This document shows, piece by piece, positions 4,737-59,765 of a DNA stretch of 64,000 nt. The position numbers were made by a program, and so were the translations under genes. Source of the stretch: Escherichia phage EJP2. The stretch lies in sequence record OQ411014.1, one strand, 5' to 3'. The notes under the pieces were generated by a model, which saw only the letters and a list, made by a program, of their open reading frames with translations, ran no database searches and was not told the DNA's origin. Each line of letters begins with the position of its first letter. Position 1 is the stretch's first letter.

Positions 4737-4737
4737 T

Positions 4738-4767
4738 TTGAGCATTCATAAAAAAATGTGATATAAT
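4738..4767 (+). promoter_or_regulatory. sigma70-type promoter driving RNA locus A
   Basis: TTGAGC (4738-4743), 18-nt spacer, TGTGaTATAAT (-10 hexamer 4762-4767); same architecture as the promoter at 58672. Confidence 0.65.
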
Positions 4768-4773
4768 TAGTAC

Positions 4774-5312
4774 TACGGATGGTTAGCTATCCGTATTTTA
4801 AATTTGAATGACCAGTACTACATACTGGTACGTTTTAACCCTGATTCACTCGAAAATGTAGAGGACAGTTGAGTACGCATTCAAGTACGTTCAGCAGAAG
4901 AAACCCGTTAGGTGTAGGCATAGTTTGTACCTCCCACGGCAATGTGGCTGATTAAACCATGAAGAGTAATACGATGACTCATGGCTTGCTTATGGCATGA
5001 TAGACATATAAGGATCGCTCCTTACCAAAATGTATAAGGGAATCTTATAAATTTTTGTAGGACTGATTAGAGGCTTACCCTTGATCCGTCCAAAATTTGA
5101 AGATACAGTACAGTACTGTTTATGTGGTAATGTATTGATGCGTGCTAAGACCACGACCGTTGCATAGAAACGCGATAGGAAGAAACAGGGCAACCCGCTT
5201 CCGTTCTTAATAGAAATTCGTAACATAAAATGATGACACATACCAGCGTCAAACTTTGTTCTTCCCTCCCTGTGGGGGGATGAAAATGAATCTACAAAAC
5301 CTCGTCAAATAA
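4774..5312 (+). ncRNA. candidate novel structured ncRNA, copy A (ends approximate)
   Basis: About 740 nt without a credible ORF and GC-richer than the flanks. Shares ordered blocks with 58708-59229, e.g. CCTGATYCACTCGAAAATGTAGAGGRCAG at 27/29 identity, GAAACCCGT, CACGACCGTTG, TACCAGCGTCA, CCCTCCC-tgt-GGGGGGA and ACCTCGTCAA. Hairpin GGAAG-15 nt-CTTCC (5178-5202) covaries with GCTGG-15 nt-CCAGC in copy B. Confidence 0.6.
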
Positions 5313-5324
5313 TAATAAGAAAGT

Positions 5325-5456
5325 ACTAAATCAATTAGAACGAACGCTAGTGAGTGATAATTGATTTAGTAACAGTAACGCTTCGCTAGAAGTGTTACTC
5401 GTTGTTTAAGAATAAAATAACTTAGTGAGTTTTGGTTCTTTTGTTGTTCACTAAGT
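5325..5456 (+). other. three strong stem-loops between RNA locus A and the next gene
   Basis: 12-bp stem 5325-5336/5359-5370; about 11-bp stem 5374-5399 with a GCTA loop; 9-bp stem 5420-5428/5448-5456; none followed by a U tract. Confidence 0.5.
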
Positions 5457-5476
5457 CCCTATAGAGAGAATATTAG

Positions 5477-5998
5477 ATGCCAGTGAAATATAAATCCCTT
5501 GATGGTGTTGTGAAGTACAAAGATCAAATGACTGAACAGGAATTACAAGAGTTCAGTGGGTACAAAATCGAGGGCAGTGCGGCACGTATTTCATACATTG
5601 AAGAGTACAAAGACGGAGATTTACTAGGGAAAATTATCCTTAGAATGACAAAAGCCCCAATCATATTTCGGGTAGTATACAAGGGATATAATGAAATTCG
5701 GTACAATACTGGAAGTGTTTCATCTAGATATTGCAGTAATGGTGATGTTTTTTGTGGTGAAATGCTGAGATATGATATGAATGGGAAGCTACAGGTTCGG
5801 GACTTTTTGAATCTAGGCAAGAACGTAACTGATGATATTGTTACTGAATTTGGTATCTCTGATATACTACAGCATGAATTTACAGAAGAAGAGTTATTCC
5901 GACTCTATATGAAATACGATTCAGGATTTAGATTCGTATCGGAATATAATAGAACTCCTGAACACTTCGATTCAGTACTGAAGGCGTGTTTGGAATAA
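5477..5998 (+). CDS. hypothetical protein (173 aa)
   Basis: ORF track; weak RBS. Confidence 0.65.
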   Translation: MPVKYKSLDGVVKYKDQMTEQELQEFSGYKIEGSAARISYIEEYKDGDLLGKIILRMTKAPIIFRVVYKGYNEIRYNTGSVSSRYCSNGDVFCGEMLRYDMNGKLQVRDFLNLGKNVTDDIVTEFGISDILQHEFTEEELFRLYMKYDSGFRFVSEYNRTPEHFDSVLKACLE

Positions 5999-6013: not shown

Positions 6014-6532
6014 ATGGATGATAAAAAATCAAAGATGGATATACACTTTTCATCTAAAGCTCAAACTTGGAATACTCCAAGAGATTTATGGAATAAAATA
6101 AATGCAGTATGGAAGTTCACTCTAGATGCTGCGTGTTTAGAAAATAGTGCCTTGTGCGAAAAGTACTTCACTCCTGAAGACGATTCATTAGAACAGGACT
6201 GGGGTGATAACATAGTATGGCTTAACCCACCCTATAACGACCTCAAGACTTGGCTATCGAAGGCAGTACAGGAATATAAGAAAGGCTCTACAGTTGTCAT
6301 TCTGGTCCCTTCTAGGACGGATACAAAGGCATTCCAGGACTATGCTTCTAAAGAATGTTCGTGTATTTGTTTTATTAAGGGAAGACTCAAGTTCTTTGAT
6401 CCAGCTAGACCACCTGATGCGAGGGCAGACCCAGCACCATTCCCTAGCTGTTTGATAGTACTGGATGATGATCTTACACAAGAGAAAATCGATTTTCTAA
6501 AAACTCTAGGTCAGGTAATGAAGAATGTCTAA
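6014..6532 (+). CDS. DNA N6-adenine methyltransferase (phage Dam-type)
   Basis: HFSSKAQTWNTPRDLW N-terminus, catalytic NPPY (VWLNPPYND), LVPSRTDT, RLKF, APFPS; pattern of the phage N6A methylase family. Confidence 0.85.
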   Translation: MDDKKSKMDIHFSSKAQTWNTPRDLWNKINAVWKFTLDAACLENSALCEKYFTPEDDSLEQDWGDNIVWLNPPYNDLKTWLSKAVQEYKKGSTVVILVPSRTDTKAFQDYASKECSCICFIKGRLKFFDPARPPDARADPAPFPSCLIVLDDDLTQEKIDFLKTLGQVMKNV

Positions 6533-7064
6533 ACGCTGTGTCTTTATGTTCGGCAGAATGAACCCGTGCCACCTCGGACACGGGAAAGTATTTGAAAAAG
6601 CACTACAACTAAAGGATAATGAAACTGATGTGAAGTTGTTCCTTAGTGCTTCGTTTGATCCTAAAAAGAATCCACTACCAAGAGAAGTTCGTCAGTACTA
6701 CATATCTGAGTTCTTCCCTGAAATAAAAGATTCTATACAAGATACAAACATAAACAATTTATTTGATATAATGAAATCACTTGATACTTATTATAGTGAT
6801 GTAATATTCGTAGGTGGTTCAGACAGGGCGAGTTCCTTCCAAGAACTACTACTGAAGTACAATAACAAACAGTACTCATTCGATTCTATCAGTACTGTAC
6901 TAGCTGGAACATCAAGAGAAGAATCTATGTTCAGTTCTACTCTAATGCGTAATGCAGTACAGAAGGACGATTTCAGTACTTTCAAGATATGTCTCCCTGG
7001 GGATAATGAATACTTGAAGTACGATATGTTCGCTGGTGTAAAGAAGTACATGAAAAATATTTGA
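6525..7064 (+). CDS. HxGH-motif nucleotidyltransferase (cytidylyl/adenylyltransferase family)
   Basis: N-terminal FGRMNPCHLGHGKVFEKAL, i.e. the (H/T)xGH signature; substrate unknown. Confidence 0.55.
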   Translation: MSKRCVFMFGRMNPCHLGHGKVFEKALQLKDNETDVKLFLSASFDPKKNPLPREVRQYYISEFFPEIKDSIQDTNINNLFDIMKSLDTYYSDVIFVGGSDRASSFQELLLKYNNKQYSFDSISTVLAGTSREESMFSSTLMRNAVQKDDFSTFKICLPGDNEYLKYDMFAGVKKYMKNI

Positions 7065-7089
7065 CACCTATCTATAGCCATGATACTAT
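7061..7089 (+). promoter_or_regulatory. sigma70-type promoter
   Basis: TTGACA (7061-7066), 17-nt spacer, TGaTACTAT (7084-7089), ahead of ATG 7124. Confidence 0.55.
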
Positions 7090-7123
7090 ATGTACATGGC
7101 TATTTCTATATGAAGGTACTATA

Positions 7124-7678
7124 ATGAAAGCAAAAGATCTGTTTGATATGGTTCACTCCAATCGTAAGCACCAATTGAATATTAATAGATCATTCAAGTT
7201 TGGTCACATGGATGTTACATATATAAAGTCATTTGGTTCTGATTTATTCTTGGTTGAGCTTGCTCAAGCTGGTAAATCTAAACGAGTATGTGAAATAATC
7301 TATTGTCCTCTCGAAGAAGAAAATGATACTTATGTTCCAGTTAAAGTATTTGATACTAAAGTCAAATTATCCAAGACTGAAATTGAGTTTGGTTTTCCGG
7401 TGGATGAAAAATTGAAGGATACAATTCGGTTTGTTCCGACTGATTTCAAAACTCCAGCATTTGATATAGACTTCAGTACTGAAGAATCGGCTTCACAAGC
7501 TATGTTCATTCATGATTTCGACCCCAAGAACTGTGAGTACCTAATGGCGGCTACACGTGCATTACAAGAAGTGTACCACCAGCCTGGATATGGGTACATG
7601 ATTATTTCGAGTACTTCTCCGGCATTACTGTGTGATGTACTAGGGATTGAAGTCCAAGTAGGAGTATACAATGCGTGA
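7124..7678 (+). CDS. FQAS-motif paralogue family member
   Basis: Start moved from 7061 (TTG, inside the promoter) to ATG 7124, giving MKAKDLFDMV; C-terminal motif EESASQAMFIHDFDPKNCEYL. Confidence 0.7.
   Translation: MKAKDLFDMVHSNRKHQLNINRSFKFGHMDVTYIKSFGSDLFLVELAQAGKSKRVCEIIYCPLEEENDTYVPVKVFDTKVKLSKTEIEFGFPVDEKLKDTIRFVPTDFKTPAFDIDFSTEESASQAMFIHDFDPKNCEYLMAATRALQEVYHQPGYGYMIISSTSPALLCDVLGIEVQVGVYNA
7471..7484. repeat. example of the over-represented AGTACT palindrome (14-bp perfect palindrome)
   Basis: CTTCAGTACTGAAG; one of several hundred AGTACT-centred sites (27 counted by hand in bases 1-6000). Confidence 0.9.
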
Positions 7679-8222
7679 TAAAGTTCAACACATATTGAAT
7701 TGTATGCAGAAGAAAGTTCACGTTCAGAATGATGTACTTGATATGCAAGTATATACAATTCTATCTTCAGAAGATGGCGTGTTTAGTTCAACTATTCGAT
7801 GCCGCAATAAAAATAGCGGTTCCTTTACTATTATGCTAAGGAAGAAGACTGAAATGATTACTGCTCCTAGTTCAGTACTGGGACAAAACGACACATACAA
7901 TACAGTTTACACTTCTCTTGCAATGAAGATGGCAATCTTCTGTACGCATGGTAATCCCCTACACATTGTTCGTGGGGATAGTACAATAGGTGATGATGTC
8001 GTTCAGGATTTGAGTGACGAAGGTTTCTTTCGCTTGTTATTGGCAGTTGACCCGAAGTATAATATCGATATAGATGGGTACAAGCAGGTTCTTGAAATGA
8101 TTTATGCATTCGAAGAAGTAGTACCTGAAGATTGGACTATTGTTATTAGCTCACCATTAGATAATTTACATTCAATAGATGTTGATTCTATCTATTCAGT
8201 ACTGAAGGATGTCGTAGTATGA
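7671..8222 (+). CDS. FQAS-motif family member (divergent)
   Basis: 8-nt overlap with upstream gene; SDEGFFRLLLAVDPKYNIDIDGY sits where the family motif occurs. Confidence 0.65.
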   Translation: MRDKVQHILNCMQKKVHVQNDVLDMQVYTILSSEDGVFSSTIRCRNKNSGSFTIMLRKKTEMITAPSSVLGQNDTYNTVYTSLAMKMAIFCTHGNPLHIVRGDSTIGDDVVQDLSDEGFFRLLLAVDPKYNIDIDGYKQVLEMIYAFEEVVPEDWTIVISSPLDNLHSIDVDSIYSVLKDVVV

Positions 8223-8788
8223 ATGCCGCAGAGTTTGTTAGAGCACTTGTTGGTTTAGCTAAAGTGAAAACTTATAGAGGAAATATCACTAAATCAAATT
8301 CGCATTTTGTTCCACGTAATGGTCGTGAACATCTATTCGTTGATTCATTACTCATCAAGGGTATCGATGCATATGAAGAAATATACATTTCTATAGATAT
8401 GTGTGATGGATTCTTGAATTCCATTGCAGTTCATACAAGAAATAGATATACTCATTTCTCTATGTACAGAAAAACGGCATACACAGAGTATGATAAGTAC
8501 GCAATGGAAGAAACCTCCCCAGGGCGTTTCCTTATGCTTTTTCACAATGAAATTACCGAGCGTGATTTAATCATGAATCACAAGGGTGAATTTATTGTGC
8601 ACATGGACAATGAAAGTGAAGTGTTCAGTACTTTATTAGTACATAACTTCGATATAGAAAAGTACAGAGAAATTCATGAAACCTATAAGTGCATTGATGA
8701 ACTTAAAACTGACCTCTCATTCAGTACATATGATACTAATTGTGGTCTGAATTTCGCAGCACTATATCAAATTATATGGAAGGCATAA
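8219..8788 (+). CDS. FQAS-motif family member
   Basis: ATGA overlap; motif ESEVFSTLLVHNFDIEKYREI. Confidence 0.7.
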   Translation: MNAAEFVRALVGLAKVKTYRGNITKSNSHFVPRNGREHLFVDSLLIKGIDAYEEIYISIDMCDGFLNSIAVHTRNRYTHFSMYRKTAYTEYDKYAMEETSPGRFLMLFHNEITERDLIMNHKGEFIVHMDNESEVFSTLLVHNFDIEKYREIHETYKCIDELKTDLSFSTYDTNCGLNFAALYQIIWKA

Positions 8789-9309
8789 TGACTGCACTAA
8801 ATGATTTCATGACTCTCAGTACTGAAATAGTATCTTCTACAAAGGGAGAAATCACAATCCCCCGTGATGATGTATATATTATACTAACACCAGGAATAGC
8901 AGAGTCCATAAAAGTATACGAAAATAATGATTCTTTACAAGTACTGTACATGCCACAAGATTATCTTTTTGTAAATTCTGATTTTACTTTACATCAATTT
9001 CCTACGTATAGTAATTTTCAACAACGTTTCCCAAGTGATAAAACAAAAGAAATAAAATACGTACAGTACGATAATAGTTTTAAAAGTCGTACTCATTTTA
9101 TCGCTTTAGAAACTGAAGAAGATATATTCAATGCTATGATAGTACATTCATTTGATATAAACGCAGCACTAGAATTGATGAGTGTATTGACTGAAGTACC
9201 GGAAGATGTAACAGGTATTATTACTATAAGAACTAAGTACAATGAAGAATTGTTACTAAAGTGCAACAGTATGATGCGAGATTATATTAGTAATAAGGAA
9301 AACACATGA
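8788..9309 (+). CDS. FQAS-motif family member
   Basis: Start taken at TAATG overlap (MTALNDFMTL); motif EEDIFNAMIVHSFDINAALEL; close paralogue of 9306..9836. Confidence 0.7.
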   Translation: MTALNDFMTLSTEIVSSTKGEITIPRDDVYIILTPGIAESIKVYENNDSLQVLYMPQDYLFVNSDFTLHQFPTYSNFQQRFPSDKTKEIKYVQYDNSFKSRTHFIALETEEDIFNAMIVHSFDINAALELMSVLTEVPEDVTGIITIRTKYNEELLLKCNSMMRDYISNKENT

Positions 9310-9836
9310 CAGTACTGAATGATTTTCTTAGAGATAGTAAGTACATTATTGATAATATTGCTGAAGAAATATCTATACCATCAATGGATGAGTTGATGAT
9401 GATATCAATGGACCCTGATGGTGGGTTGGTAAAAGTATATTACGATTTTGAACTGCACGTAATGTTCATGAAAAATCATTATGAACACGCTTCTGATATG
9501 TTGACACTTTATGATTTTGGGACGCATAAAAATTACCAACAACGTTTACCAGCAAACAAATCAAAGGATATGAAACTAAGTGTTTACAATTCTGCTGGTG
9601 TTACTATTCCGACTAAGATTTCTCTTGGTTCTGAAGAGGGAATCTTTTCTGCGGAATTAGTACATGATTCCAGTACTGAAGAAGCACTTGAAGTTATGCA
9701 AGTAATTTCTGAAGTACCTGACAGTACCAAAGGAATACTTACTATAAGAAATAAGTACAACGAACGATTACTTATAAAATGTAATGTGTTATTAGAACAA
9801 TATATACATGGAGTACTGAATGCAAATATGGTATAA
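9306..9836 (+). CDS. FQAS-motif family member
   Basis: ATGA overlap; MTVLNDFLRD; motif EEGIFSAELVHDSSTEEALEV; tail ILTIRNKYNERLLIKCN matches IITIRTKYNEELLLKCN of the upstream gene. Confidence 0.7.
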   Translation: MTVLNDFLRDSKYIIDNIAEEISIPSMDELMMISMDPDGGLVKVYYDFELHVMFMKNHYEHASDMLTLYDFGTHKNYQQRLPANKSKDMKLSVYNSAGVTIPTKISLGSEEGIFSAELVHDSSTEEALEVMQVISEVPDSTKGILTIRNKYNERLLIKCNVLLEQYIHGVLNANMV

Positions 9837-10113
9837 TGTAGTACAGAAGGATTGGGATGATAATGAAAAGACAGGGATGCGTTTCATTTCTGTTATCATT
9901 TCGAATGAAACTCGTTATGTTCTACGAGCGGATAAGAATGATGGCGTATGGGAATCATCTTTGTATCCAATGGGTTACAAATATTCTTTAGATGATGTTG
10001 CAAGTCTAGCTGATTCTATGATAGACTCAGTAAAGATTATGAAGTTCCTTGAACGTCCAGAGCTAACAACGGCTGATGATGTACAGGAATTTTTGGCGAC
10101 TTTACAAGGGTAA
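9820..10113 (+). CDS. hypothetical protein (97 aa)
   Basis: ORF track; overlaps upstream gene end. Confidence 0.6.
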   Translation: MQIWYNVVQKDWDDNEKTGMRFISVIISNETRYVLRADKNDGVWESSLYPMGYKYSLDDVASLADSMIDSVKIMKFLERPELTTADDVQEFLATLQG

Positions 10114-10115
10114 TT

Positions 10116-10634
10116 ATGAAACTTTCTGACTTCATTGCACGCAAAGATTCGTTCAAAAATGGCGTTTTTCATCAAGTAGAAGGTACTGACTTTACATATA
10201 TCAGTACTAGTATTGGATTGGGAGAAGCATCGAGTATCGTATCTTTTTATACAAAAGAAACACTTGCTATATGTGATTTTGTATTTTCAACTAAACATTA
10301 TAATACCACAGACAATGCAATTATGTTCGATGCAAACTCAGTGAATGATGCTTGGTGTGTATATTTTTCTTATCCAAATACAAATGAAAATATAGTATTA
10401 TTCTTGGATGATTCAGAAGATAACGAGCCACCAGTACTGGTAGATATCTCATCAGAAGCGGATATCTTCACTAAAGCAGTAGCATTCGATATAAATTGTG
10501 ATGGTATTGAAGAGTACATTTCGATTTCCAAAGCAATCGAAAAAATTGCCAAGGATTTGGGATTACCGGAATTTACTCTAGAACTTCGTCACAATAAACT
10601 GAAGGAATTTCTTGAGATATTTGAACTATGCTAA
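10116..10634 (+). CDS. FQAS-motif family member
   Basis: MKLSDFIARK; motif EADIFTKAVAFDINCDGIEEY. Confidence 0.65.
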   Translation: MKLSDFIARKDSFKNGVFHQVEGTDFTYISTSIGLGEASSIVSFYTKETLAICDFVFSTKHYNTTDNAIMFDANSVNDAWCVYFSYPNTNENIVLFLDDSEDNEPPVLVDISSEADIFTKAVAFDINCDGIEEYISISKAIEKIAKDLGLPEFTLELRHNKLKEFLEIFELC

Positions 10635-10873
10635 TAATTGACAATTTAGACATACCTGGTGAATTCGAAGTACTCGAAGGGATTAGTATGAGTACGTTCG
10701 TAATAAAAAGTACTGAAGCGTGGGTGAAAAAACACTTGACTGAATTAGGGTTATCCGATACACTACACTTCTTTAGTTACAGTACTGGAGATTTAGTTTT
10801 AGAATCGACAAGAGCGAGGATTACGAGTTTAAGTTCTAAGCGATTTTATGTTGAATTTATGGAAGGAGAATGA
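10628..10873 (+). CDS. hypothetical protein (81 aa)
   Basis: ORF track; overlapping starts and stops on both sides. Confidence 0.55.
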   Translation: MLIIDNLDIPGEFEVLEGISMSTFVIKSTEAWVKKHLTELGLSDTLHFFSYSTGDLVLESTRARITSLSSKRFYVEFMEGE

Positions 10874-11442
10874 CAATGATCAATAGTAATACTTATATGC
10901 GTTACCTACGTATGGGCGTTTCTTTAGTTCCAGTTCGTGGAAAAGATTCAGTAGACCAAGAGTTCGCATATGCGATGCCTATTGATGGTGTACAGTACGT
11001 ACTGAACGATGGTGGTATGTACGAAGATACAAATGAGTCCGAAGACATGTCTGATATGCTTCAGAACTTATTAGCAGTAGTCAATAGTGACCGTCATGAT
11101 AAAGTAAAACGCGTTACTACGTTCCTGGAAAAGAATCTACACAAAACTGTTTGGTGTGAGATTGCTTCTGGACCACAACTGGGTTTGCTATTCGGGAACG
11201 CAGATGGTACAATTTGTCAATTAGCGATGGATTTCCGTTCTCCAGAGCAGTTCCAAGAGTACCGTGCATCTATCATCGAACACTTTGCAGCACTCGGTCT
11301 TGACGAATCTAAGATTCCAGAAATTAGTCCAATGGATACATTTGTACTGATTCCTGAGAGTCCAGCATTCGAAGCACTATTCAGTACTTTCCAGTGCTTA
11401 GGGATTGAAGTAAGTCCAGCAGATGTAGATGATGAAGAATAA
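10870..11442 (+). CDS. acidic hypothetical protein (190 aa)
   Basis: ORF track; ATGA overlap. Confidence 0.65.
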   Translation: MTMINSNTYMRYLRMGVSLVPVRGKDSVDQEFAYAMPIDGVQYVLNDGGMYEDTNESEDMSDMLQNLLAVVNSDRHDKVKRVTTFLEKNLHKTVWCEIASGPQLGLLFGNADGTICQLAMDFRSPEQFQEYRASIIEHFAALGLDESKIPEISPMDTFVLIPESPAFEALFSTFQCLGIEVSPADVDDEE

Positions 11443-11520
11443 TTAGTACTGTATATGTATACACCTTTACGATAAAGTCTTAAATATCTGAAGGTGTATA
11501 TTGTCATAGGAGGAAAAGTT

Positions 11521-11724
11521 ATGAAATATTCATTGATTCGTTTAGGATTATTTGTTACAGTAGTCTTAATGGTTGTGATTGGTTCAGTACTGACACAGTT
11601 ATACCCTGCGTTTATTTTACTCGCTGGGATTTTTGGTTCAGTACTGATTGGGCTGGTGGGTTGGGCTTTGCAGCTTACCATCGATGCGGAATTAGAAAAG
11701 AGGATTAAAGATAAAGATGAATGA
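11521..11724 (+). CDS. small membrane protein (67 aa)
   Basis: AGGAGG RBS before ATG 11521; two hydrophobic helices. Confidence 0.65.
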   Translation: MKYSLIRLGLFVTVVLMVVIGSVLTQLYPAFILLAGIFGSVLIGLVGWALQLTIDAELEKRIKDKDE

Positions 11725-11890
11725 TAAAGGTGAAGAGGAAGTCTTCTGTACTGCGTGCAATCTGTACGTACAACCTGAATACAGTTCGTACTCATGTATT
11801 TCACAGTACGGTTCATCAGTGTTCTGTAAAGAACTCTGTCCTATTTGTTATAAACAATTTCGGGAATTTTTAGTCGATGCAGACATTTGA
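11717..11890 (+). CDS. small zinc-ribbon protein, 57 aa (below ORF-track cutoff), TRASH/FCS-like C-x2-C-x22-C-x3-C
   Basis: MNDKGEEEVFCTACNLYVQPEYSSYSCISQYGSSVFCKELCPICYKQFREFLVDADI; fills an otherwise unexplained gap; overlaps both neighbours by a few nt. Confidence 0.5.
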   Translation: MNDKGEEEVFCTACNLYVQPEYSSYSCISQYGSSVFCKELCPICYKQFREFLVDADI

Positions 11891-12566
11891 TAATTCAATC
11901 AACATCAGTACTGAACTATTAAAAGTACTAAAAGTGATTTATAGTTTCAGTACTGAAGAGTTGTTGAAAGTACTACCAGAGAGTGTATCTAAACGAGAAA
12001 ACGAATATAAGTGCGTTTTTGATATACAACAAGATGTACAATTTCAAGTTCAAATTAACTACAAAGACGATTTGAATTATCGCAGTACTAATATTTCCAT
12101 TCTTGATGTGCGTCGCGGCGTAACAATGAATGGGACAATTCCATGTATCTTAGCTTTAGGTACATACGCAGCGAATAAATCAGAACCATCTATCATTTGT
12201 AACTACTCCCAAAGTAAAGAATTTATGGTTCGATATCATTCATTGACCGAAAATCCTGCTTATACAAATGTCAGTACTGATGGCAATTCACTTAGAATGA
12301 ATCGAATCAAGTACTACGAGATTGATGATATTTTTGATGAAGGTGCAGTATTCCAACATTCAATTATGCATGAGTTCGACCCTAATAGTATTCTGTTATT
12401 ACAGAAGATGGTCACTGTTGGGGATTACATCAGTACTAAATGTAATTCCAATAAAATCCTTGTCTCGGCTGATGAAGATAAGTTAGATGGTCTGTTGGAT
12501 TCACTTCTAAAGATTGATGTTGTTAGTAAATTCATTTCCTTATATGAAGGTACAGAATGGTCATAG
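11877..12566 (+). CDS. FQAS-motif family member
   Basis: Motif EGAVFQHSIMHEFDPNSILLL. Confidence 0.7.
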   Translation: MQTFDNSINISTELLKVLKVIYSFSTEELLKVLPESVSKRENEYKCVFDIQQDVQFQVQINYKDDLNYRSTNISILDVRRGVTMNGTIPCILALGTYAANKSEPSIICNYSQSKEFMVRYHSLTENPAYTNVSTDGNSLRMNRIKYYEIDDIFDEGAVFQHSIMHEFDPNSILLLQKMVTVGDYISTKCNSNKILVSADEDKLDGLLDSLLKIDVVSKFISLYEGTEWS

Positions 12567-13180
12567 CCAATAAAGGTTTAGAAATCATTGAAATTGCACC
12601 GGATGAAGTTCAAATGGAAGTTGAAGTAATGTATCCGTGCAACATTGAACAGTACTGCAAACAGGGATTACAGTACTTAGAAGAAATGCAAGTACTACTT
12701 GATTCTCCTGATTGTATCGATAATTATACCAAATACACAACTGTAACCAGAACTACACCAGAATTGGAATTGATTGGTATTCGATATTGCAACACACGTC
12801 TCCCATCAATTATTACTACAGTTAAATTTACTGAAGTAATGTTGCTGGAAACATTTAGATGGCCTAAAACGTTACAAAGTCATTTCAATTCAATACGTTT
12901 TGGTGAAGATGAATACATTATCATGTGTGAAGATCCTAAGTCCTACAAATATGTAGTGATGGTCGAGCAAGATGAAGTATGCACAATTGAAGATATCAGA
13001 GACGAAAGTTCTTTATTTCAGGCTTCATTAGTTTCTGAATTAGATCCGTGTATACAGGAGTATCTCATCAAACATCACGAACTGTACTTGCGTGCAATTA
13101 GTAATGAGAACAAAGAGATTACTACTCTATGTACTACTCTGGCAGGTGGTGATTACTACGCAGAGAGGCAGTACTTATGA
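12557..13180 (+). CDS. FQAS-motif family member
   Basis: Motif ESSLFQASLVSELDPCIQEYL. Confidence 0.7.
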   Translation: MVIANKGLEIIEIAPDEVQMEVEVMYPCNIEQYCKQGLQYLEEMQVLLDSPDCIDNYTKYTTVTRTTPELELIGIRYCNTRLPSIITTVKFTEVMLLETFRWPKTLQSHFNSIRFGEDEYIIMCEDPKSYKYVVMVEQDEVCTIEDIRDESSLFQASLVSELDPCIQEYLIKHHELYLRAISNENKEITTLCTTLAGGDYYAERQYL

Positions 13181-13716
13181 ATGCCTTAGAACATATTGTA
13201 AAATACTTCAGTACTGCACAACCTAATGGGTATGCGTTGTTTCATGCAATGTTTCATTATGAACGAGAACCACTAGCAATTGAGCGTTATTATCAAAACG
13301 AGAAAACGCACTTCTTGATTCATGTTCGGGTCGGTTCAAAGATTGAAACTCTAAAAATGTACTATAATCACAAAGAATATCCGAAGAAAATTATAATGAT
13401 TCAATCGTCACCTACAAATAGTTTTATACATTTGATGAGTAATTATAAGACACAATTTTTAGATGATGCCAATAGTAATGTGTGTATTATGGGCGTTGAG
13501 GGAAAGGAATATAACTTCAATGCATTTGATGAATGTGCATTATTCCAGGCCAGTACTGTATGTGATATTGATGTGGATTTCATTTCAAAATCTATGTTGA
13601 CATTACAGAATATTTCGGATAGTATTAGTAGTGTTGTTACCTTACAAGGAACCAAAGGTGTAATCGATGAACTTTGTAATCTCAGGATTGATTCGATTAT
13701 GCGATTAGCTTCATAG
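13177..13716 (+). CDS. FQAS-motif family member
   Basis: ATGA overlap; motif ECALFQASTVCDIDVDFISKS. Confidence 0.7.
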   Translation: MNALEHIVKYFSTAQPNGYALFHAMFHYEREPLAIERYYQNEKTHFLIHVRVGSKIETLKMYYNHKEYPKKIIMIQSSPTNSFIHLMSNYKTQFLDDANSNVCIMGVEGKEYNFNAFDECALFQASTVCDIDVDFISKSMLTLQNISDSISSVVTLQGTKGVIDELCNLRIDSIMRLAS

Positions 13717-13771
13717 TAATAGATTCAAAAAAATTTATAAAAGTGCAAATAATCACAAGGAGTGTGAATAT

Positions 13772-14506
13772 ATGTTAGATCGTATAAAATTTGCCCAGGA
13801 GATGGCGAATGAGCTAAACAAATCAAATTTCCAAACTGTATCACCTATTATGGCTGAGTATGCTACTGCATATGCAACAGATGGAGTTCAGTGTGGACAG
13901 GCGAATATGTTAGCGGACGTGTACAGTACTGTGCAGAGTAAGCAATTCTCTGTTAAGACGTACAAAGATAAATTCGTATCTTCATTCATGAAGGGTGAGA
14001 TTGCAGAAGATCGTGAGTTCACAGATCCTATCATTGAGCGTAGGATTTCTGGGGTGGCGAATCCGAATGCTGATCCATCGTTAGTCTTTGAGGAAGTACT
14101 GAATGATATTCGAGACAATGAACGCAGAAGTCTAAACCACTACGGTATTAATTCCACTGGAACAGTACTGTTAGGATTCAGCGAAGATGATGATTATTTT
14201 TACTTTCGTCTAACTGAATATGATTATGTGTATGATGCTCCCGCTTCAGTACAAGAGAAGACCTTCACAGAACGTAGTAAAAACTACCTAAAACATACAG
14301 GAAATCGTTGCGGAATCGAATGCTACAACACTGAAGGTGTTATGGTGTACGAATGGGTTCACCCGAACAATCAGGCTTATACACGCTGTCTGAAGAAGCG
14401 GTACGACCTACGTGATGCTGATTCTATGTATTTCAAAATCAAGAAGCAGAAGTACACCAGACCTGATGATAATGCATTGTTGGATATGGTTAGTATTCAC
14501 TTCTAA
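13772..14506 (+). CDS. hypothetical protein (244 aa)
   Basis: ORF track; AAGGAG RBS. Confidence 0.7.
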   Translation: MLDRIKFAQEMANELNKSNFQTVSPIMAEYATAYATDGVQCGQANMLADVYSTVQSKQFSVKTYKDKFVSSFMKGEIAEDREFTDPIIERRISGVANPNADPSLVFEEVLNDIRDNERRSLNHYGINSTGTVLLGFSEDDDYFYFRLTEYDYVYDAPASVQEKTFTERSKNYLKHTGNRCGIECYNTEGVMVYEWVHPNNQAYTRCLKKRYDLRDADSMYFKIKKQKYTRPDDNALLDMVSIHF

Positions 14507-14515
14507 ATCAATTAT

Positions 14516-14546
14516 GCAGTACTGCGATTGTAGTACTGCTTTTTTC
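14516..14546 (+). terminator. intrinsic terminator built from two AGTACT motifs
   Basis: GCAGTACT-gcgattgt-AGTACTGC followed by TTTTTTC. Confidence 0.75.
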
Positions 14547-14556
14547 TGGAGATGCT

Positions 14557-15111
14557 ATGAATAATCTTGAGTTCGTTAAACACTTGGCTAATAAAGTTGA
14601 TACAATCGCACAGAAACATATTGACACTCAAAGTTCAATACCTATAAAATTAGCGATTCCTCATGATAATATGGAACTGTTCGATAGATTCTTTTCTGTT
14701 CGAGGCCGCCACGATAAAGATAGATATCTTTTACTCGACACTGACCGGAATGCTTTTCAGTACTCAACACCTACGTTTCCTGGAATTTTCATGAAAGTGT
14801 CTGATGGATTGTACCTTACGTACTCACCACCAGATATATCACAGACTATGATTGGATTGGATTCTAGGGTATTACTATTTCAGCCACGCAATCCAAGTGA
14901 TGTATATGATCCGTATGAATTCTTGACTGAAGAAATGCACTTCCAGGCATCTACAGTACTGGATATTCCGAGCATAGAAACTCTAAGAGAAATGCTTGAT
15001 ATTGTTGAGTTTTTGATTGAAAGTGAATTCAAATTTAGATGTTCAATGGACTACGATGATTACCAGAGTATTCAGATTGGTCGTTTTTATAATTACGCAA
15101 TGCAGGAATAA
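14557..15111 (+). CDS. FQAS-motif family member
   Basis: MNNLEFVKHL; motif EEMHFQASTVLDIPSIETLRE. Confidence 0.7.
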   Translation: MNNLEFVKHLANKVDTIAQKHIDTQSSIPIKLAIPHDNMELFDRFFSVRGRHDKDRYLLLDTDRNAFQYSTPTFPGIFMKVSDGLYLTYSPPDISQTMIGLDSRVLLFQPRNPSDVYDPYEFLTEEMHFQASTVLDIPSIETLREMLDIVEFLIESEFKFRCSMDYDDYQSIQIGRFYNYAMQE

Positions 15112-15115
15112 CCAA

Positions 15116-15727
15116 ATGAAGAATCTAGATAAATTTGAAGACCTTATCAGTACTGCAAAAGCGTTCGGGTATTATAATTTCATCCAACGCTTTGGCCTCA
15201 AAGAAGAAAGTAACCGTTTCTGTAAAGTATATCGTGGTATCTGTACTGAAGATTCGGAGTATCAGTTCTTGATTGGAACTATGCGTTCTAGTGGTGGGAT
15301 TACATACATCGTTGAAGATAATAAAACAGGTGAGTACTTGAACATGTTCGCTCTTCGGGCAGAAGGTGAATCTGAACTTACTGCGATGTTTAAAGACTGG
15401 ACACGACTATCATACAAATACGATAAGTTCAACATCTACAACTACGAAACCAAGAAGATGGAAGTTGTACCGAACATTGACATGTCTGAAGATGAACATT
15501 TTCAGTTCATGCTATTGCATGATATTCCAGATTATGATACAGTACAGTCAGTACTGAAATATCATAAAGAAGTTTCACCAATGCTCAAAGAACATAAGCT
15601 ATTCAATATCATCACGTACACGATGCCTGATTTTGATTTCACAAAGATGAAAATCAAACCTGAAGTAATTGACACGTGTATGGATTTGATACCTGAATCA
15701 TCTTTATACAAACACAAGGATATATAA
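15116..15727 (+). CDS. FQAS-motif family member
   Basis: Start moved to ATG 15116 (MKNLDKFEDL, AGGA RBS) because the ORF-track start 15017 lies inside the upstream gene; motif EDEHFQFMLLHDIPDYDTVQS. Confidence 0.7.
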   Translation: MKNLDKFEDLISTAKAFGYYNFIQRFGLKEESNRFCKVYRGICTEDSEYQFLIGTMRSSGGITYIVEDNKTGEYLNMFALRAEGESELTAMFKDWTRLSYKYDKFNIYNYETKKMEVVPNIDMSEDEHFQFMLLHDIPDYDTVQSVLKYHKEVSPMLKEHKLFNIITYTMPDFDFTKMKIKPEVIDTCMDLIPESSLYKHKDI

Positions 15728-16866
15728 TGACTACAATGCGTGAACTATATGACGATTTGAATGCATTAGTATCTGATGCTTTCTATCACAAAGATTTCGT
15801 TAGTAAAGGCTCTGGTACGTACCGGATTTTCTCGTACCGTCTAGCGAGTGCTGCTGACTTCGAAGAACGTAATGCCCTTGAGTCACGTGGTATTATGTTC
15901 GAGATTGATGCAGATACTAAAGAGCCAATTCGTATTGCTTCTCGGACTATGAAGAAGTTTTTCAATGCAGGGGAAACCCAAGAATTACAGTTCAAGAAGG
16001 ACGTACCATTCAGTACTATCAAGTGCGTAATGCCTAAGTTGGATGGTTCTGTTATTGCAACCTTCATGGACAATGATGGAATTATTCGTACTAAATCAAA
16101 CTCTTCGTTGGAGTCTGAGCACGCGTATTACAGTACTGAAATGATTCACGCCAATGATAAGTTACACGATGCAATCATTTGTGCTGAAGCTGCTGGTTAT
16201 ACTGTAATTATGGAATTTACTTCACCTGAGTACCGGATTATTCTTCCTTACCAGAAAGATGAACTAACTGTATTGCGTATCATTCATCGTGAAAGTGGTG
16301 AAAGCATTATGGGTTCTGACTTGAAGGAGAAGTTCCCAGTACTGTATGAGTTTTCGGTATTTGGTGATAAAGACATTCATGAATCATTCCCTGTTCGCAG
16401 TACTTTAGTACAGAGTATTGCTGCTGTTCGTGAAATGGAAGAGATTGAGGGATATGTTGTAGTACTACAAGATGGCACTACATTCAAGCTCAAGACGGAT
16501 TGGTATTGCAATTTACATTTTACCAAAGATAGTATTATCATTGATTCTCGACTATTCAAGGCAGTACTGGATGGTAGTTCAGATGATTTACGTCAATTGT
16601 TTGAAAATGATGAATATGCACTAAAAAAAGTCGAAAAAATGGAAAATTTGATTTTTTTGTGCTATAATAAGTTAGAAGAGGATGTGACTACTTTTTACGA
16701 AAAGTACAAGCACCTTGATCAAAAAACGTATGCTATGAAGGTGTTGGGTGAATTATCGAAAGATATGAACCGACAAGGACTTGCATTCAACTTGTACAAT
16801 GGTAAACCTGTTGATTACAAAGAAGTACTACTAAAGTACATGAAGAACGTGTTAGAAGGATTCTGA
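15727..16866 (+). CDS. rnlA: RNA ligase 1 (T4 RnlA-like)
   Basis: N-terminus GTYRIFSYRLAS...RGIMFEID...PIRIASRTMKKFFN parallels T4 Rnl1; nucleotidyl-transfer motif I KLDGS; about 379 aa, as in T4 Rnl1. Confidence 0.9.
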   Translation: MTTMRELYDDLNALVSDAFYHKDFVSKGSGTYRIFSYRLASAADFEERNALESRGIMFEIDADTKEPIRIASRTMKKFFNAGETQELQFKKDVPFSTIKCVMPKLDGSVIATFMDNDGIIRTKSNSSLESEHAYYSTEMIHANDKLHDAIICAEAAGYTVIMEFTSPEYRIILPYQKDELTVLRIIHRESGESIMGSDLKEKFPVLYEFSVFGDKDIHESFPVRSTLVQSIAAVREMEEIEGYVVVLQDGTTFKLKTDWYCNLHFTKDSIIIDSRLFKAVLDGSSDDLRQLFENDEYALKKVEKMENLIFLCYNKLEEDVTTFYEKYKHLDQKTYAMKVLGELSKDMNRQGLAFNLYNGKPVDYKEVLLKYMKNVLEGF

Positions 16867-51590: not shown

Positions 51591-52178
51591 ATGCCATTAC
51601 AATACAGAACGGACGTGAACGCAGCAGGACAAATTAAAGTACAGAATAAAACAACTGGTGTTTCTATTACATCAGGTAACGGTCAAGTATATTCTACAAC
51701 ATCTGCGGGGGCGATTACGTTCCCAGTACTGACAACTGATGATGTGGATTATATTACACTTGAATTACCACTCTCTCAGTTCGGAGAATTGTATGAGAAT
51801 ACTAGTCTTAATATTACAAGTACTGGTTTAGTACTGAAGTTTAATAGAATAATTCCACTCTTCATGAGTGGGATTTACTACGATGTTCCAGTTCAGAACA
51901 TCACAGCACAAGCTGCAACGTCAGGTACAGCAACATATTATGTGTATGTTAAACTAGAACTTGGTGCACCAAAATATTTCATCTCCAGAACAGAAGGTGT
52001 TGAGAACGAAATAACCATGTTCATAGGTACTATCACAGTAAGTACTACCACAATAACAGCAATCAATATTAACAAAGTTTCCAGATTCGGTACATACAGA
52101 CCGAGTACTACACAGAAAGGTTCTTCTTTCCCTGTCAGTACTGGACACCCTTCACAAACTGGTTCAATTAACTGGTAA
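51591..52178 (+). CDS. tail-fibre C-terminal-module protein (195 aa)
   Basis: Corresponds to the last ~120 aa of both flanking fibre genes (P.Q...A....Y.Y.....FIGTI...I......V.RF.TYRPST..KGSSFPVSTGHPSQTGSINW). Confidence 0.65.
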   Translation: MPLQYRTDVNAAGQIKVQNKTTGVSITSGNGQVYSTTSAGAITFPVLTTDDVDYITLELPLSQFGELYENTSLNITSTGLVLKFNRIIPLFMSGIYYDVPVQNITAQAATSGTATYYVYVKLELGAPKYFISRTEGVENEITMFIGTITVSTTTITAININKVSRFGTYRPSTTQKGSSFPVSTGHPSQTGSINW

Positions 52179-55021: not shown

Positions 55022-55333
55022 ATGCAATACAGAACACCAGTACTGATCAATCGATACAAAAGTAAAGACTTTGATGTTTACATTGGTCGTGGGACAAAAT
55101 GGGGAAACCCGTTCCCAATCGATGAAGCATGTGGTCAAACTCGCCTAATCGTTATTGAAATGTACAGACACCAAATGTATGAATGGCTAGAAAATGGAAC
55201 CATCACTGTTCAGGATATTTTGGATTTATCGGGAAAAACCATTGCATGTTCTTGTGCACCAAAGGCATGTCATGGAGATATAATCATAGAGGTATTCAAT
55301 GAAATAGTGAGTATGATGAATGCAGGAACATAA
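55022..55333 (+). CDS. DUF4326-family protein
   Basis: DVYIGRGTKWGNPF ... GKTIACSCAPKACHGDII, the family-typical pattern. Confidence 0.7.
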   Translation: MQYRTPVLINRYKSKDFDVYIGRGTKWGNPFPIDEACGQTRLIVIEMYRHQMYEWLENGTITVQDILDLSGKTIACSCAPKACHGDIIIEVFNEIVSMMNAGT

Positions 55334-55721
55334 AATATATGACATCATTAAAACTCTTAAAACTTGTAAGAGAGTAACATTATCTGAAAAAGTTTACTGC
55401 GGTTTAAATGATAAAAAGTGTATCATGTTCGATTGTATAGATGATGGTGAATCCAGCATTAGTATTGCTAGTCCTAAGAATCCTAATGGTGATTTTATCT
55501 TCTGTACAGTTACTGATGAACTTGAATTTGTACTCGTCAAGAGTGATGGTGCACAATCTGAAATCTTAGACTTGAGTACTGAAGATAGATTCTTTCAACG
55601 AAGTTTACTCTTTGACTTATCATTAACCTATGATGAGTATCAATCAGTACTTCATAATTTCAACAAATTTTATAACGGACTAATCAGTACTGTTATAATC
55701 TATTCAACCGAGGTCATATAA
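55320..55721 (+). CDS. FQAS-motif family member (dispersed copy)
   Basis: Motif EDRFFQRSLLFDLSLTYDEYQ. Confidence 0.6.
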   Translation: MQEHKIYDIIKTLKTCKRVTLSEKVYCGLNDKKCIMFDCIDDGESSISIASPKNPNGDFIFCTVTDELEFVLVKSDGAQSEILDLSTEDRFFQRSLLFDLSLTYDEYQSVLHNFNKFYNGLISTVIIYSTEVI

Positions 55722-56968
55722 TGTCAAAAAATATGCTCGAAAATATCATCGTAAAACACTACGCTGGTAGTATCGCTTATGGTACAAATACTCCCTTATC
55801 AGATGTTGATTTCCGTGGAATCTTTATGGCTCCAAAGGAATTCATCTTGTCTCCGTTCGTAAACGTAGGGGAAGCATCTGATTCAAAAGAAGAAGATACT
55901 AAATTCTACGAACTCAATAAGTTCATGAAACTAAATGTCGATGCGAACCCGAATATCCTCGAAACACTATGGGTCGATGATGAACACATCGTTGAAAGTA
56001 CTGAAATGTACCAACATCTTCGCAAGCACAGAAGTGAACTACTAAGTAATAAGATTGCATTTACTTATACTGGATTCGCATATAACCAAGTTCACCGCAT
56101 GAGCAACCATAATGGCTGGATGGATAAAGAGAGAATTGCTGAACGCAGACTCAATGAAATCATCGAAAAACATCCTTGTATTGAAGTGAAAGAGTGGATG
56201 TACGAATATTTCCCTCATTATGTCATTGACCGGATTGACTTCTCTAATGTAAAAGGTTATAGTGATGATGTTGATTTGGACTTGGATAAGTTCTTGCGTG
56301 ATAGTTCTCTGCAACTGATCAGTACTAAATCCTTAGCACAGCATCACTTCGTGCGTTTAGTACATAATTACTTACCACAGAAAGTACTTGACCGTGATTT
56401 CAACTTAGCTCATTTCAATACGAATCATGAACTAATTCACTACGGTGATAATATCTTTGCAGTAGTTCCAACTCAGGGGAAATCGAAAGTACTTTCAGTA
56501 CATAACGATTTAGTTTGGGATTCAAAGAAAGAACGTACTCCTGAAGAACTAAAAGTACTTCCATCTTTGATTGTGAAATTCAATCGCAAAGAATATGAAG
56601 AACTGAATGATAAACGCAAGCACTATCACAAGTGGAAAGAGAACCGTAACAGTATTCGTGCTGAACTGGAGTCAAAGAATGGCTTCGATACTAAGCACGC
56701 AATGCACGTGGTTCGTTTATTACGTACAGCAAAAGAAGCACTGTTGACTGGTGTCATCAACGTCAAACGTCCTGATGCGGAAGAATTACTTGCAATCCGT
56801 AATGGTGCTTGGACATATGAAGAAATGATGAAGTACTTTGAATCTGAATCTAAATTAGTAATGAACTTAGGTAAAACATCAAAAGTACTTCCATCGTCCC
56901 CAAACCGTAAACTAGCAACTCAATTAGTACTAGACTTACGTGAGATGCATTGGAAACAAGGAAAATAA
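55721..56968 (+). CDS. nucleotidyltransferase-domain protein (Pol-beta superfamily; RNA-repair-associated type)
   Basis: N-terminal YAGSIAYGTNTPLSDVDFRGIF (G[ST]..YG...SD.D); 415 aa. Confidence 0.6.
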   Translation: MSKNMLENIIVKHYAGSIAYGTNTPLSDVDFRGIFMAPKEFILSPFVNVGEASDSKEEDTKFYELNKFMKLNVDANPNILETLWVDDEHIVESTEMYQHLRKHRSELLSNKIAFTYTGFAYNQVHRMSNHNGWMDKERIAERRLNEIIEKHPCIEVKEWMYEYFPHYVIDRIDFSNVKGYSDDVDLDLDKFLRDSSLQLISTKSLAQHHFVRLVHNYLPQKVLDRDFNLAHFNTNHELIHYGDNIFAVVPTQGKSKVLSVHNDLVWDSKKERTPEELKVLPSLIVKFNRKEYEELNDKRKHYHKWKENRNSIRAELESKNGFDTKHAMHVVRLLRTAKEALLTGVINVKRPDAEELLAIRNGAWTYEEMMKYFESESKLVMNLGKTSKVLPSSPNRKLATQLVLDLREMHWKQGK

Positions 56969-58671: not shown

Positions 58672-58701
58672 TTGAGATGAATGAAAATTTTGTGATATAA
58701 T
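58672..58701 (+). promoter_or_regulatory. sigma70-type promoter driving RNA locus B
   Basis: TTGAGA (58672-58677), 18-nt spacer, TGTGaTATAAT (58696-58701); the TGTGATATAAT string is identical to that at 4757-4767. Confidence 0.65.
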
Positions 58702-58707
58702 GTATAG

Positions 58708-59229
58708 TACGGATAACACCTATGTTGAATGTCTTTGATAAACAGAACCTGATCCACTCGAAAATGTAGAGGGCAGATGAGTAGAACATTCACTACGAAG
58801 TGCAAATGAAACCCGTCAGTAATAAAGCGTAAGTGCGGTCATACAAACGAGACGTAAGACACACGCGACACGGCAAAGCGGCACTATAAAAGCGATAAGA
58901 AAACATATTCGCTCTTGATAGACTTATGAGGCATACTCACCCAGTTGAAAGGGAGTCTCTTTACGGAGAGACAGCAGTATTTGTTGCTGAATTAGCAAGT
59001 ACTGTAAGCGTGTGAGGAACACGACCGTTGTATGCAGACTGTAGTAGCTGGAAACAGGACAACCCGCCAGCGTTGCTACTTTTATTTGTACGGGAAAGAT
59101 CCGTCCAAAAAGTAGTGAATCTACAAATTCAGATTGGTAAGACTACCAGCGTCAGGATATTCCTGATTTTTTTTCGGCCCTCCCTTGTGGGGGGATGGAA
59201 TTGGATCAACAAACCTCGTCAAGTATAAT
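58708..59229 (+). ncRNA. candidate novel structured ncRNA, copy B (ends approximate)
   Basis: About 690-nt ORF-free gap. Shares conserved blocks with copy A (58748-58776, 58808-58816, 59020-59030, 59144-59154, 59178-59195, 59213-59222). Hairpin GCTGG-AAACAGGACAACCCG-CCAGC (59047-59071) covaries with copy A. Confidence 0.6.
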
Positions 59230-59354: not shown

Positions 59355-59765
59355 ATGAGTCAGTTAGAACCAATTGTAGGATCTTATAATATTTTCTTCA
59401 AAGATACCAATGTAACACCAAGCAGTTCATATAACCAAAATACACGTGTAAGTACTTACACAATTGAGCATTTAAGTACTGGCAAGAATTTCAGTACTGA
59501 ATACGGGAAGTACGTCCAGAAGAACTCCGATTGTTTTCAGCTATTTCGTAACTCCCCACGTCAAGATATTTTACTAATCACAAACGAAGTGGAGTTCCGT
59601 CAAAGATCTCTTGATTTCCCTAATGCAGTTCATTATACTATTAGTGATATCGACTTCATCAAAGTACTTGTTCATTACGACGAAGTATCAAAGGTAAGTA
59701 CTTTTGAGGATTTGTCTTTTGATGAAGTAATTGCACTCAAGGATAAACTATATGAAAGCAAGTGA
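59355..59765 (+). CDS. hypothetical protein, weak FQAS-family resemblance
   Basis: AGGAG RBS; EVEFRQRSLDFPNAVHYTISDIDF at the family motif position. Confidence 0.6.
   Translation: MSQLEPIVGSYNIFFKDTNVTPSSSYNQNTRVSTYTIEHLSTGKNFSTEYGKYVQKNSDCFQLFRNSPRQDILLITNEVEFRQRSLDFPNAVHYTISDIDFIKVLVHYDEVSKVSTFEDLSFDEVIALKDKLYESK

Follow-up and report, generated by a model that had tools for sequence, protein, structure and literature searches.

What does a jumbo phage do with eleven adjacent copies of one small gene? The question is raised by a 64,000-nt stretch of Escherichia phage EJP2 (the window; all coordinates are window positions and genes are named by their first nucleotide), in which a run of small open reading frames (ORFs) lies between a cytidylyltransferase-like gene and the gene for the RNA ligase RnlA. 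The genome of EJP2 is 349 kb long, and the paper describing the phage places it in the Rak2-related group with 471 of its 540 ORFs annotated as hypothetical. A preliminary description made from the sequence alone had proposed that at least 11 of the ORFs form a rapidly diversifying family, as would be expected of host-takeover or anti-defence effectors or of specificity variants of one fold. All 11 were confirmed at the coordinates it gave, on the plus strand and encoding 172-229 aa, with the motif strings that it quoted present verbatim, and the product of 7124 is 100% identical to EJP02_078 of EJP2. They belong, as shown here, to a family that has expanded in the lineage and is confined to Rak2-like jumbo phages, its members being small (133-229 aa), soluble and for the most part acidic proteins.

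The gene family and its members

The evidence for a single family comes from profile searches. Starting from a profile of 8788 and 9306 only, a hidden Markov model (HMM) iterated over all 108 plus-strand ORFs of the window converged in three rounds on precisely the 11 ORFs together with 55320, with the next-best ORF at E = 0.47, bearing out the claim of a tandem array of 11 paralogues with a common motif. Leave-one-out profiles recovered 11 of the 12 members at E values of 1e-6 to 5e-4 against 0.03 or more for the top non-member, the exception being 7671 (E = 0.054 versus 0.17 for the top non-member). In a noisier leave-one-out test on a 27-sequence alignment eight of the 12 members gave E ≤ 7e-4 with 7124, 7671 (E = 0.55), 8219 and 12557 weak, the aligned spans often covering 95-155 residues and so extending beyond the motif alone. 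The support is firm in most cases and depends on the alignment in a few, such that ten tandem members are well supported while 7671 is marginal (Table 1). A regular expression for the motif matches 10 of the 12 members and two of the 96 other ORFs, and an N-terminal pattern, M-x(2-4)-[DEN]-[FH]-[VILMF], is found in six members and in one other ORF. Members are acidic, with a median isoelectric point of 4.8 compared to 5.5 for the other ORFs.

The divergence within the family is extreme. In pairwise BLASTP only 8788 and 9306 are strongly linked (39% amino acid identity, E = 7e-38), all other pairs having E values of at least 0.003. This closest pair had been taken for a recent duplicate, but with 55% nucleotide identity and a proportion of synonymous differences (pS) of 0.59 the duplication must be old. 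Comparison of profiles, put forward earlier as a check on whether the motif is shared, aligned independent sub-profiles with one another at modest P values of 1e-5 to 1e-3, the alignments centring on the motif and keeping it in register in every case. The insignificant pairwise matches and modest P values might be taken to mean that the motif is coincidental or that the ORFs are not real genes; however, profile searches recover adjacent ORFs and no others, the motif is in register in other genera and the ORFs are intact in independent contigs with ratios of nonsynonymous to synonymous substitution (dN/dS) below 1, so that this explanation is effectively refuted and its probability close to nil.

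Several candidates at the margin of the family were considered. Of the two dispersed copies proposed earlier 55320 stands on both the HMM and leave-one-out searches, while 59355 was rejected: its orthologues Munch_187 and SP27_4910 lack the motif-like string EVEFRQRSLDFP, hhalign gave P values of 0.35-0.9, and the HMM E values were 0.75 in the iterated search and 0.02-0.1 in a database of three sequences. Likewise 20301, the top non-member in some runs, was rejected by hhalign (P ≥ 0.15). The neighbouring gene 6525 is of the same length and contains EESMFSSTLMR (residues ~132-145), but an origin of the family from this cytidylyltransferase was rejected by hhalign and the string is most likely the ISxT motif of nucleotidyltransferases. 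A profile of the orthologues of 5477 aligned with two family sub-profiles at the motif (hhalign P = 3e-4 and 4.5e-4) with no significant HMM match, and its 173-aa product may be a distant relative of the family.

Several non-member ORFs lie inside the array, in agreement with the earlier mention of interspersed unrelated small ORFs. Among these the 76-aa and 57-aa ORFs in the middle of the array, the latter with a CxxC...CxxC spacing, have no relation to the family and show 99-100% conservation among relatives. The array genes share their strand with their neighbours and have overlapping stops and starts, with 12 of the 17 junctions from 7124 to rnlA overlapping by 1-17 nt or separated by no more than 4 nt and four gaps of 50-59 nt. 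The tight spacing behind the earlier claim of translational coupling is thus observed, and from it we infer the coupling itself.

Table 1. Positions of the family members and of other features in the window.
Feature	Position	Strand	Product, length or motif	Remarks
Structured-RNA candidate 1	4757-5307, core 4866-5307	+	core about 450 nt	
Possible distant member	5477..5998	+	173 aa, FTEEELFRLYMKYD	conserved gene upstream of Dam
Cytidylyltransferase-like gene	6525..7064	+		left flank; unrelated to family (hhalign)
Sigma-70-like promoter match	7061..7089	+	TTGACA-17-TACTAT with TG	in 59-nt gap before 7124; consensus match only
Family member	7124..7678	+	184 aa, motif EESASQAMFIHDFDP	leave-one-out E 2e-5; weak in 27-sequence test (E 0.1)
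Putative member	7671..8222	+	183 aa, SDEGFFRLLLAVDP	weakest; recruited only at HMM iteration 3
Family member	8219..8788	+	189 aa, ESEVFSTLLVHNFD	leave-one-out E 6e-6; weak in 27-sequence test
Family member	8788..9309	+	173 aa	closest paralogue 9306; E 1e-6 with both of pair left out
Family member	9306..9836	+	176 aa	leave-one-out E 2e-4; 27-sequence test 7e-4
Interspersed non-member	9820..10113	+	97 aa	
Family member	10116..10634	+	172 aa	leave-one-out E 4e-5; 27-sequence test 1.4e-6
Interspersed non-member	10628-10873	+	81 aa	
Interspersed non-member	10870-11442	+	190 aa	phrog_15575
Interspersed small ORFs	11494..11890	+	76 aa; 57 aa	hydrophobic membrane-type protein; Cys-rich protein
Family member	11877..12566	+	229 aa, EJP02_089	leave-one-out E 2e-4; 27-sequence test 2.7e-6
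Family member	12557..13180	+	207 aa	leave-one-out E 4.5e-5; weaker in 27-sequence test (0.008)
Family member	13177..13716	+	179 aa, ECALFQASTVCDID	leave-one-out E 5e-5; 27-sequence test 1.6e-7
Interspersed conserved non-member	13772..14506	+	244 aa	phrog_16105 (E 3e-124); homologue of CBB_80/GAP32_077
Terminator-like hairpin and T-run	14516..14545	+		between 13772-14506 and 14557; consensus match only
Family member	14557..15111	+	184 aa	Hallingskeid orthologue at same position; 27-sequence test 3.8e-8
Family member	15116..15727	+	203 aa	best conserved; matches phrog_32531; stop overlaps rnlA start by 1 nt
RnlA-type RNA ligase 1	15727..16866	+	PF09511	right flank
Dispersed short member	55320..55721	+	133 aa	leave-one-out E 1.5e-5; matches phrog_22376; stop overlaps RlaP-type start by 1 nt
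RlaP-family nucleotidyltransferase	55721..56968	+	PF10127 (E 3e-16); phrog_388	directly downstream of 55320
Structured-RNA candidate 2, paralogous	58691-59221, core 58774-59221	+		core about 450 nt; in 690-nt gap upstream of ORF 59355

Distribution and divergence in Rak2-like phages

The slot between the cytidylyltransferase gene and rnlA is syntenic in other Rak2-like phages with varying gene content, the RnlA of EJP2 being 55-60% identical to that of such phages as Hallingskeid, CBB, Munch, fENko-Kae01, ph0011 and BF. Presence in related phages had been named earlier as a check, and with the window profile weaker members were detected in this slot in Hallingskeid (six), Munch (up to five) and ph0011 (two), while CBB (CBB_58, a GAP32_054 homologue) and pEa_SNUABM_47 have a single member elsewhere, at an upstream position. 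The members in relatives all keep [ST]xE[ED]xxFQ in register (for example SEETNFQGSTIVDIP, TEEMHFQHSLMCELP and TEEWLFQLMTRYDIP), and the largest array in the comparison is that of the EJP2 lineage with its 11 copies. For the tandem members clear orthology was limited to 15116, which is 28-30% identical to the gene immediately before rnlA in Hallingskeid, Munch and ph0011, and 14557, which is 31% identical over 128 aa to Hallingskeid 12796-13359 (E = 3.5e-17). Orthologues were found by tblastn in 42 phage records for 15116 and in 51 for 55320. The non-member 13772-14506 (phrog_16105) holds its place within the array in all of these phages. On the near-identical metagenomic contig L006 one or two more members lie ~1.5-2 kb upstream of the window start, at 295-867 (E = 3e-7), probably the counterpart of CBB_58/GAP32_054, and at 1799-2260 (E = 4e-4).

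Megablast of the array DNA against 50,697 phage records gave no match and neither did tblastn with 13177, indicating that the family is too divergent for single-sequence searches. The family profile, searched against 5.8 billion clustered and 1.84 billion representative proteins, returned only self or near-self matches and no distant cellular relatives.

The same array, in unchanged gene order, is present on six metagenomic contigs from independent samples, whose nucleotide identity to the window is mosaic and ranges from 92% (at 9306) up to 100%. In these comparisons, which are between very close relatives with small substitution counts, dN/dS is 0.2-0.6 in the diverged members (0.47 for 9306, at 92% nucleotide identity) compared to ≤0.13 in the flanking cytidylyltransferase and Dam genes, and indels are in-frame only (9 nt in 8788; 21 nt in 10116 of contig L008). 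This indicates that selection is purifying but relatively relaxed. Against contigs L006-L009 the divergence across 7124-13716 is mosaic at the scale of single genes, with 9306 92% and the adjoining 9820 99% identical, which suggests either recombination between related phages or locally faster evolution. Since members fill the same slot in several genera and orthologues of 14557 and 15116 are recognisable the family must be old, and together with the fixed gene order and the dN/dS values this makes "rapidly diversifying" an overstatement.

Fold, neighbourhood and possible function

No match to the family was found in Pfam, NCBIfam, the PADLOC HMMs or PDB sequences, with nothing over a curated threshold. 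The best-conserved tandem member, 15116, matches phrog_32531 (positions 42-189 of 229, E = 4e-17) and 55320 matches phrog_22376 (positions 6-132 of 133, E = 4e-17), both annotated as of unknown function, and the other nine members reach any PHROG only at E values of 0.004-0.07. The earlier statement that there is no recognised domain therefore holds. The two PHROGs are the database bins of the two conserved lineages, PHROGs splitting over several unlinked bins of unknown function a family whose array members are joined here, and no publication found connects the bins or describes the array.

For 15116 AlphaFold2, given nine orthologues and the paralogues, yielded a model with a predicted local distance difference test score (pLDDT) of 79.8 and a predicted template modelling score (pTM) of 0.73. 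This model contains helices at residues 4-17 and 19-25, about nine β-strands between 29 and 117, a motif helix at 125-134, a long helix at 140-159, a further strand and a helix at 182-191. The predicted architecture is that of an N-terminal helix pair, an antiparallel β-meander of eight or nine strands and, at the C-terminus, a helical hairpin whose first helix opens with the motif. Foldseek matched the model to no solved fold in the PDB. The top PDB match, the MAM33/p32 protein 3qv0, has the same gross order of N-terminal helix, antiparallel sheet and C-terminal helices and is likewise acidic, yet with an E value of 0.13, a probability of 0.15 and a template modelling score of 0.20 a MAM33-like fold is not supported. 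Matches in BFVD were solely to uncharacterised Rak2-like phage proteins, several of them from single genomes, consistent with paralogues having a common local structure. A model of 14557 has a pLDDT of only 44 and still places helices at 125-134 and 140-155, so that structure prediction, suggested earlier as a check, yields a confident model without a solved counterpart for 15116 and falls short for 14557. Taken together, one multigene family of variants of a single scaffold with no known domain is supported.

In the motif, [ST]-x-E-[ED]-x-x-F-Q, the Glu and the Phe alone come close to invariance, and the protein sequence otherwise varies almost freely. It could be argued that the Glu, an acidic residue at the N-terminus of a helix, is the catalytic residue of a set of enzymes such as nucleases, transferases or hydrolases with paralogues differing in substrate, and there is a borderline sequence match to a COG3871 split-barrel protein (E = 0.0056). 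With two nearly invariant positions a multi-residue active site is disfavoured, and we regard an enzymatic role as very unlikely.

Virion proteomics, another check named earlier, could be followed through relatives. The mass spectrometry table of caesium chloride-purified CBB virions lists 55 proteins, and the homologue CBB_58 is not one of them (PMC5259590). Similarly ENKO_095-101 and ENKO_175 are not in the list of identified proteins of fENko-Kae01, a list with many non-structural proteins, the ENKO and coding sequence numbering being in agreement. The absence of the homologues from particle proteomes fits intracellular effectors rather than structural proteins, and it bears on the possibility that the family are packaged internal proteins like T4 IPI-III, injected to block host defences, with the N-terminal M-x-x-x-[DE]-F-[IV] acting as a capsid-targeting signal. 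The hyperplastic IPI-III loci of T4 are likewise tandem arrays of highly divergent small genes with a common N-terminal signature, variable between related phages, such variable arrays being typical of internal-protein loci. The T4 capsid-targeting sequence MKTYQEFIAE resembles the N-terminal pattern, which is itself family-specific. There is however no sequence relationship to IPI-III, the conserved element is a C-terminal helix motif rather than a cleavable leader with no conserved [LI]xE cleavage context, the N-terminal residues form helix 4-17 which is integral to the fold in the model, and the homologues were not found in the particle proteomes of two relatives, an indirect test for EJP2. 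A packaged protein is thus very improbable.

The neighbourhood offers a further line of evidence. To the left of the array are the Dam methylase and cytidylyltransferase genes, and to the right RnlA, three small ORFs and Pnkp. The dispersed member 55320 is flanked by a DUF4326 gene and the RlaP-family nucleotidyltransferase, and its pairing with RlaP recurs in 121Q (genes 505-506) and fENko-Kae01 (ENKO_175-176), such that the two best-conserved lineages directly precede RnlA and RlaP. The literature treats Rnl1, Pnkp and RlaP as means by which phages counter the attack of host RNases on tRNA (PMC7824862; PMC12776372).

From this neighbourhood (Dam, RnlA, Pnkp and RlaP), the acidity and the diversity of the family we infer an anti-defence or host-takeover role. 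The reading that we favour, with somewhat less than even confidence, is that the members are non-virion diversified binders or inhibitors on one scaffold that take part in phage-host conflict. Inside infected cells they would form a set of modules for binding or inhibition, in which the conserved helical hairpin would hold the fold together or offer a common interface while the variable β surface would give each copy its own partner. Given the neighbouring Dam, RnlA, Pnkp and RlaP genes the likeliest partners would be host conflict proteins, especially RNA-targeting toxins or anticodon nucleases causing damage that the adjacent enzymes repair, and copy number may vary between genera because host defence repertoires vary. 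The version restricted to RNases is in itself unlikely.

Several observations weigh against this reading. A dN/dS below 1, in comparisons of very close relatives with few substitutions, gives no sign of an arms race, and the acidity differs only modestly from the genome background. Of the two structure predictions that of 15116 alone is confident, and a full-length fold common to all members is at most presumed. The neighbourhood argument was made post hoc and rests on two adjacencies, neither of which is universal: CBB and pEa_SNUABM_47 carry RnlA with no detected member upstream of rnlA, and in RaK2 one gene separates the 55320 orthologue from RlaP.

The same adjacencies could mean that members, instead of inhibiting host proteins, assist phage nucleic-acid enzymes as accessory, regulatory or targeting subunits, 15116 serving RnlA and 55320 serving RlaP with the other copies serving other enzymes or being spare duplicates. 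In both pairs the member stop overlaps the enzyme start by 1 nt and both pairings are conserved across genera; against this nine further copies have no adjoining enzyme partner, the exceptions in CBB, pEa_SNUABM_47 and RaK2 apply here also, and matches among the 1.84 billion representative proteins were all of 133-229 aa with no domain or enzyme fusions. Such a subunit role seems to us improbable. Databases annotate the neighbouring RnlA as a tail fibre attachment catalyst, by analogy with gp63, and tail-fibre genes of 121Q lie ~1.4 kb downstream of the 55320 orthologue, from which it might be supposed that the family are assembly chaperones or attachment factors for the many tail fibres of Rak2-like phages. 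The annotation is copied from T4, the array sits amid genes of nucleotide metabolism and repair a long way from the structural module, and copy number has no obvious relation to fibre number, making this highly improbable.

A more specific proposal is that the array is a phage "polyimmunity" battery on a fold not seen before, in which every paralogue would neutralise its own RNA-targeting toxin of the host, for instance an anticodon nuclease or HEPN RNase. Bacterial polyimmunity loci of the SUKH/Imm type are arrays of small, acidic and extremely divergent paralogues on one scaffold that are thought to neutralise various nuclease toxins, and the EJP2 array likewise consists of small, acidic, divergent paralogues on one scaffold. 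With such a battery beside RnlA-Pnkp-RlaP the phage would both block and repair RNA damage, and copy number would track the defence repertoire of the host genus. The EJP2 family differs in having no match to a Pfam immunity family, no structural match and no known cognate toxin, and in being phage-encoded, and we consider the proposal a doubtful one. Overall each rival is less supported than the conflict-protein reading.

An early-type promoter upstream of the array had been part of the effector argument. The site in question (Table 1) matches 10 of 12 positions of the sigma-70 consensus, such matches are locally fewer than in shuffled sequence, and the CBB paper suspected an early region elsewhere in the genome, so this part of the argument is not supported. 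A 9-bp inverted repeat at 7075-7103 on the plus strand (ATAGCCATG ... CATGGCTAT) overlaps the -10 element of the promoter-like site and could be an operator or an RNA hairpin.

Candidate structured RNAs, other paralogues and wider meaning

Upstream of 5477 a gene-free gap of 740 nt (4737-5476) has 66% column identity with long invariant blocks and is far better conserved across six Rak2-like genera than the surrounding proteins. The RNA candidate within it opens with a conserved extended -10 box (TGTGATATAAT, 4757-4767). For six sequences RNAalifold predicted 86 pairs, 25 of them with compensatory changes, compared to at most 6 covarying pairs in slid controls; 93.9% of cells were paired compared to 86.3% in shuffles and none of 500 shuffles reached the observed values. 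No match was found to Rfam, tRNA or tmRNA. A second, paralogous candidate shares the -10 box and, in the same order, the blocks CAGATGAGTA, GAAACCCGTCAG, CGACCGTTG, CAACCCGC, CCAGCGTCA, GGGGGGATG and ACCTCGTCA, and the signature occurs in 26 stretches in IMG/VR, often twice per contig of about 350 kb. The two candidates appear to represent a family of large structured RNAs that has escaped annotation in Rak2-like phages.

Other paralogues are encoded on the plus strand of the window. Two large ORFs at 48882-51581 (899 aa) and 52188-54941 (917 aa) are 28% identical (E = 4e-67) and belong to phrog_3573 of unknown function, with a 195-aa ORF between them (51591-52178) that matches their C-terminal ~120 residues. 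An adjacent pair at 59752-60291 (179 aa) and 60288-60782 (164 aa) is 29% identical (E = 8e-16) with no Pfam match, a further tandem duplication on a small scale.

Gene-family expansion is already familiar in jumbo phages, and lineage-specific cases in these and in large DNA viruses include a zinc-ribbon expansion in Bacillus phage G (PMC7824862) and the 22 paralogous ORFs reported for CBB (PMC5259590). These represent the same phenomenon of a giant virus genome amplifying a small domain, the domain in EJP2 being a different one. The family itself is undescribed as such: it is neither named nor analysed in the main text of those two papers, and the EJP2, CBB, fENko-Kae01 and Sharanji papers and a comparative genomics paper on jumbo phages contain no description of it and no transcript timing for the region, the EJP2 paper making no mention of paralogues.

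Most jumbo-phage genes are unannotated, and here about a dozen "hypothetical proteins" in each genome are brought together in one Rak2-like family. With a defined motif, a confident model that has no known structural relative and a reproducible link to RNA repair, the members become candidates for anti-defence screens in coliphages of a kind under consideration for therapy. Should they prove to inhibit host RNases, phage counter-defence would gain a "block" arm beside the "repair" arm already known; otherwise the family would still illustrate cleanly how a gene can be amplified and its copies diverge to an extreme on one scaffold.

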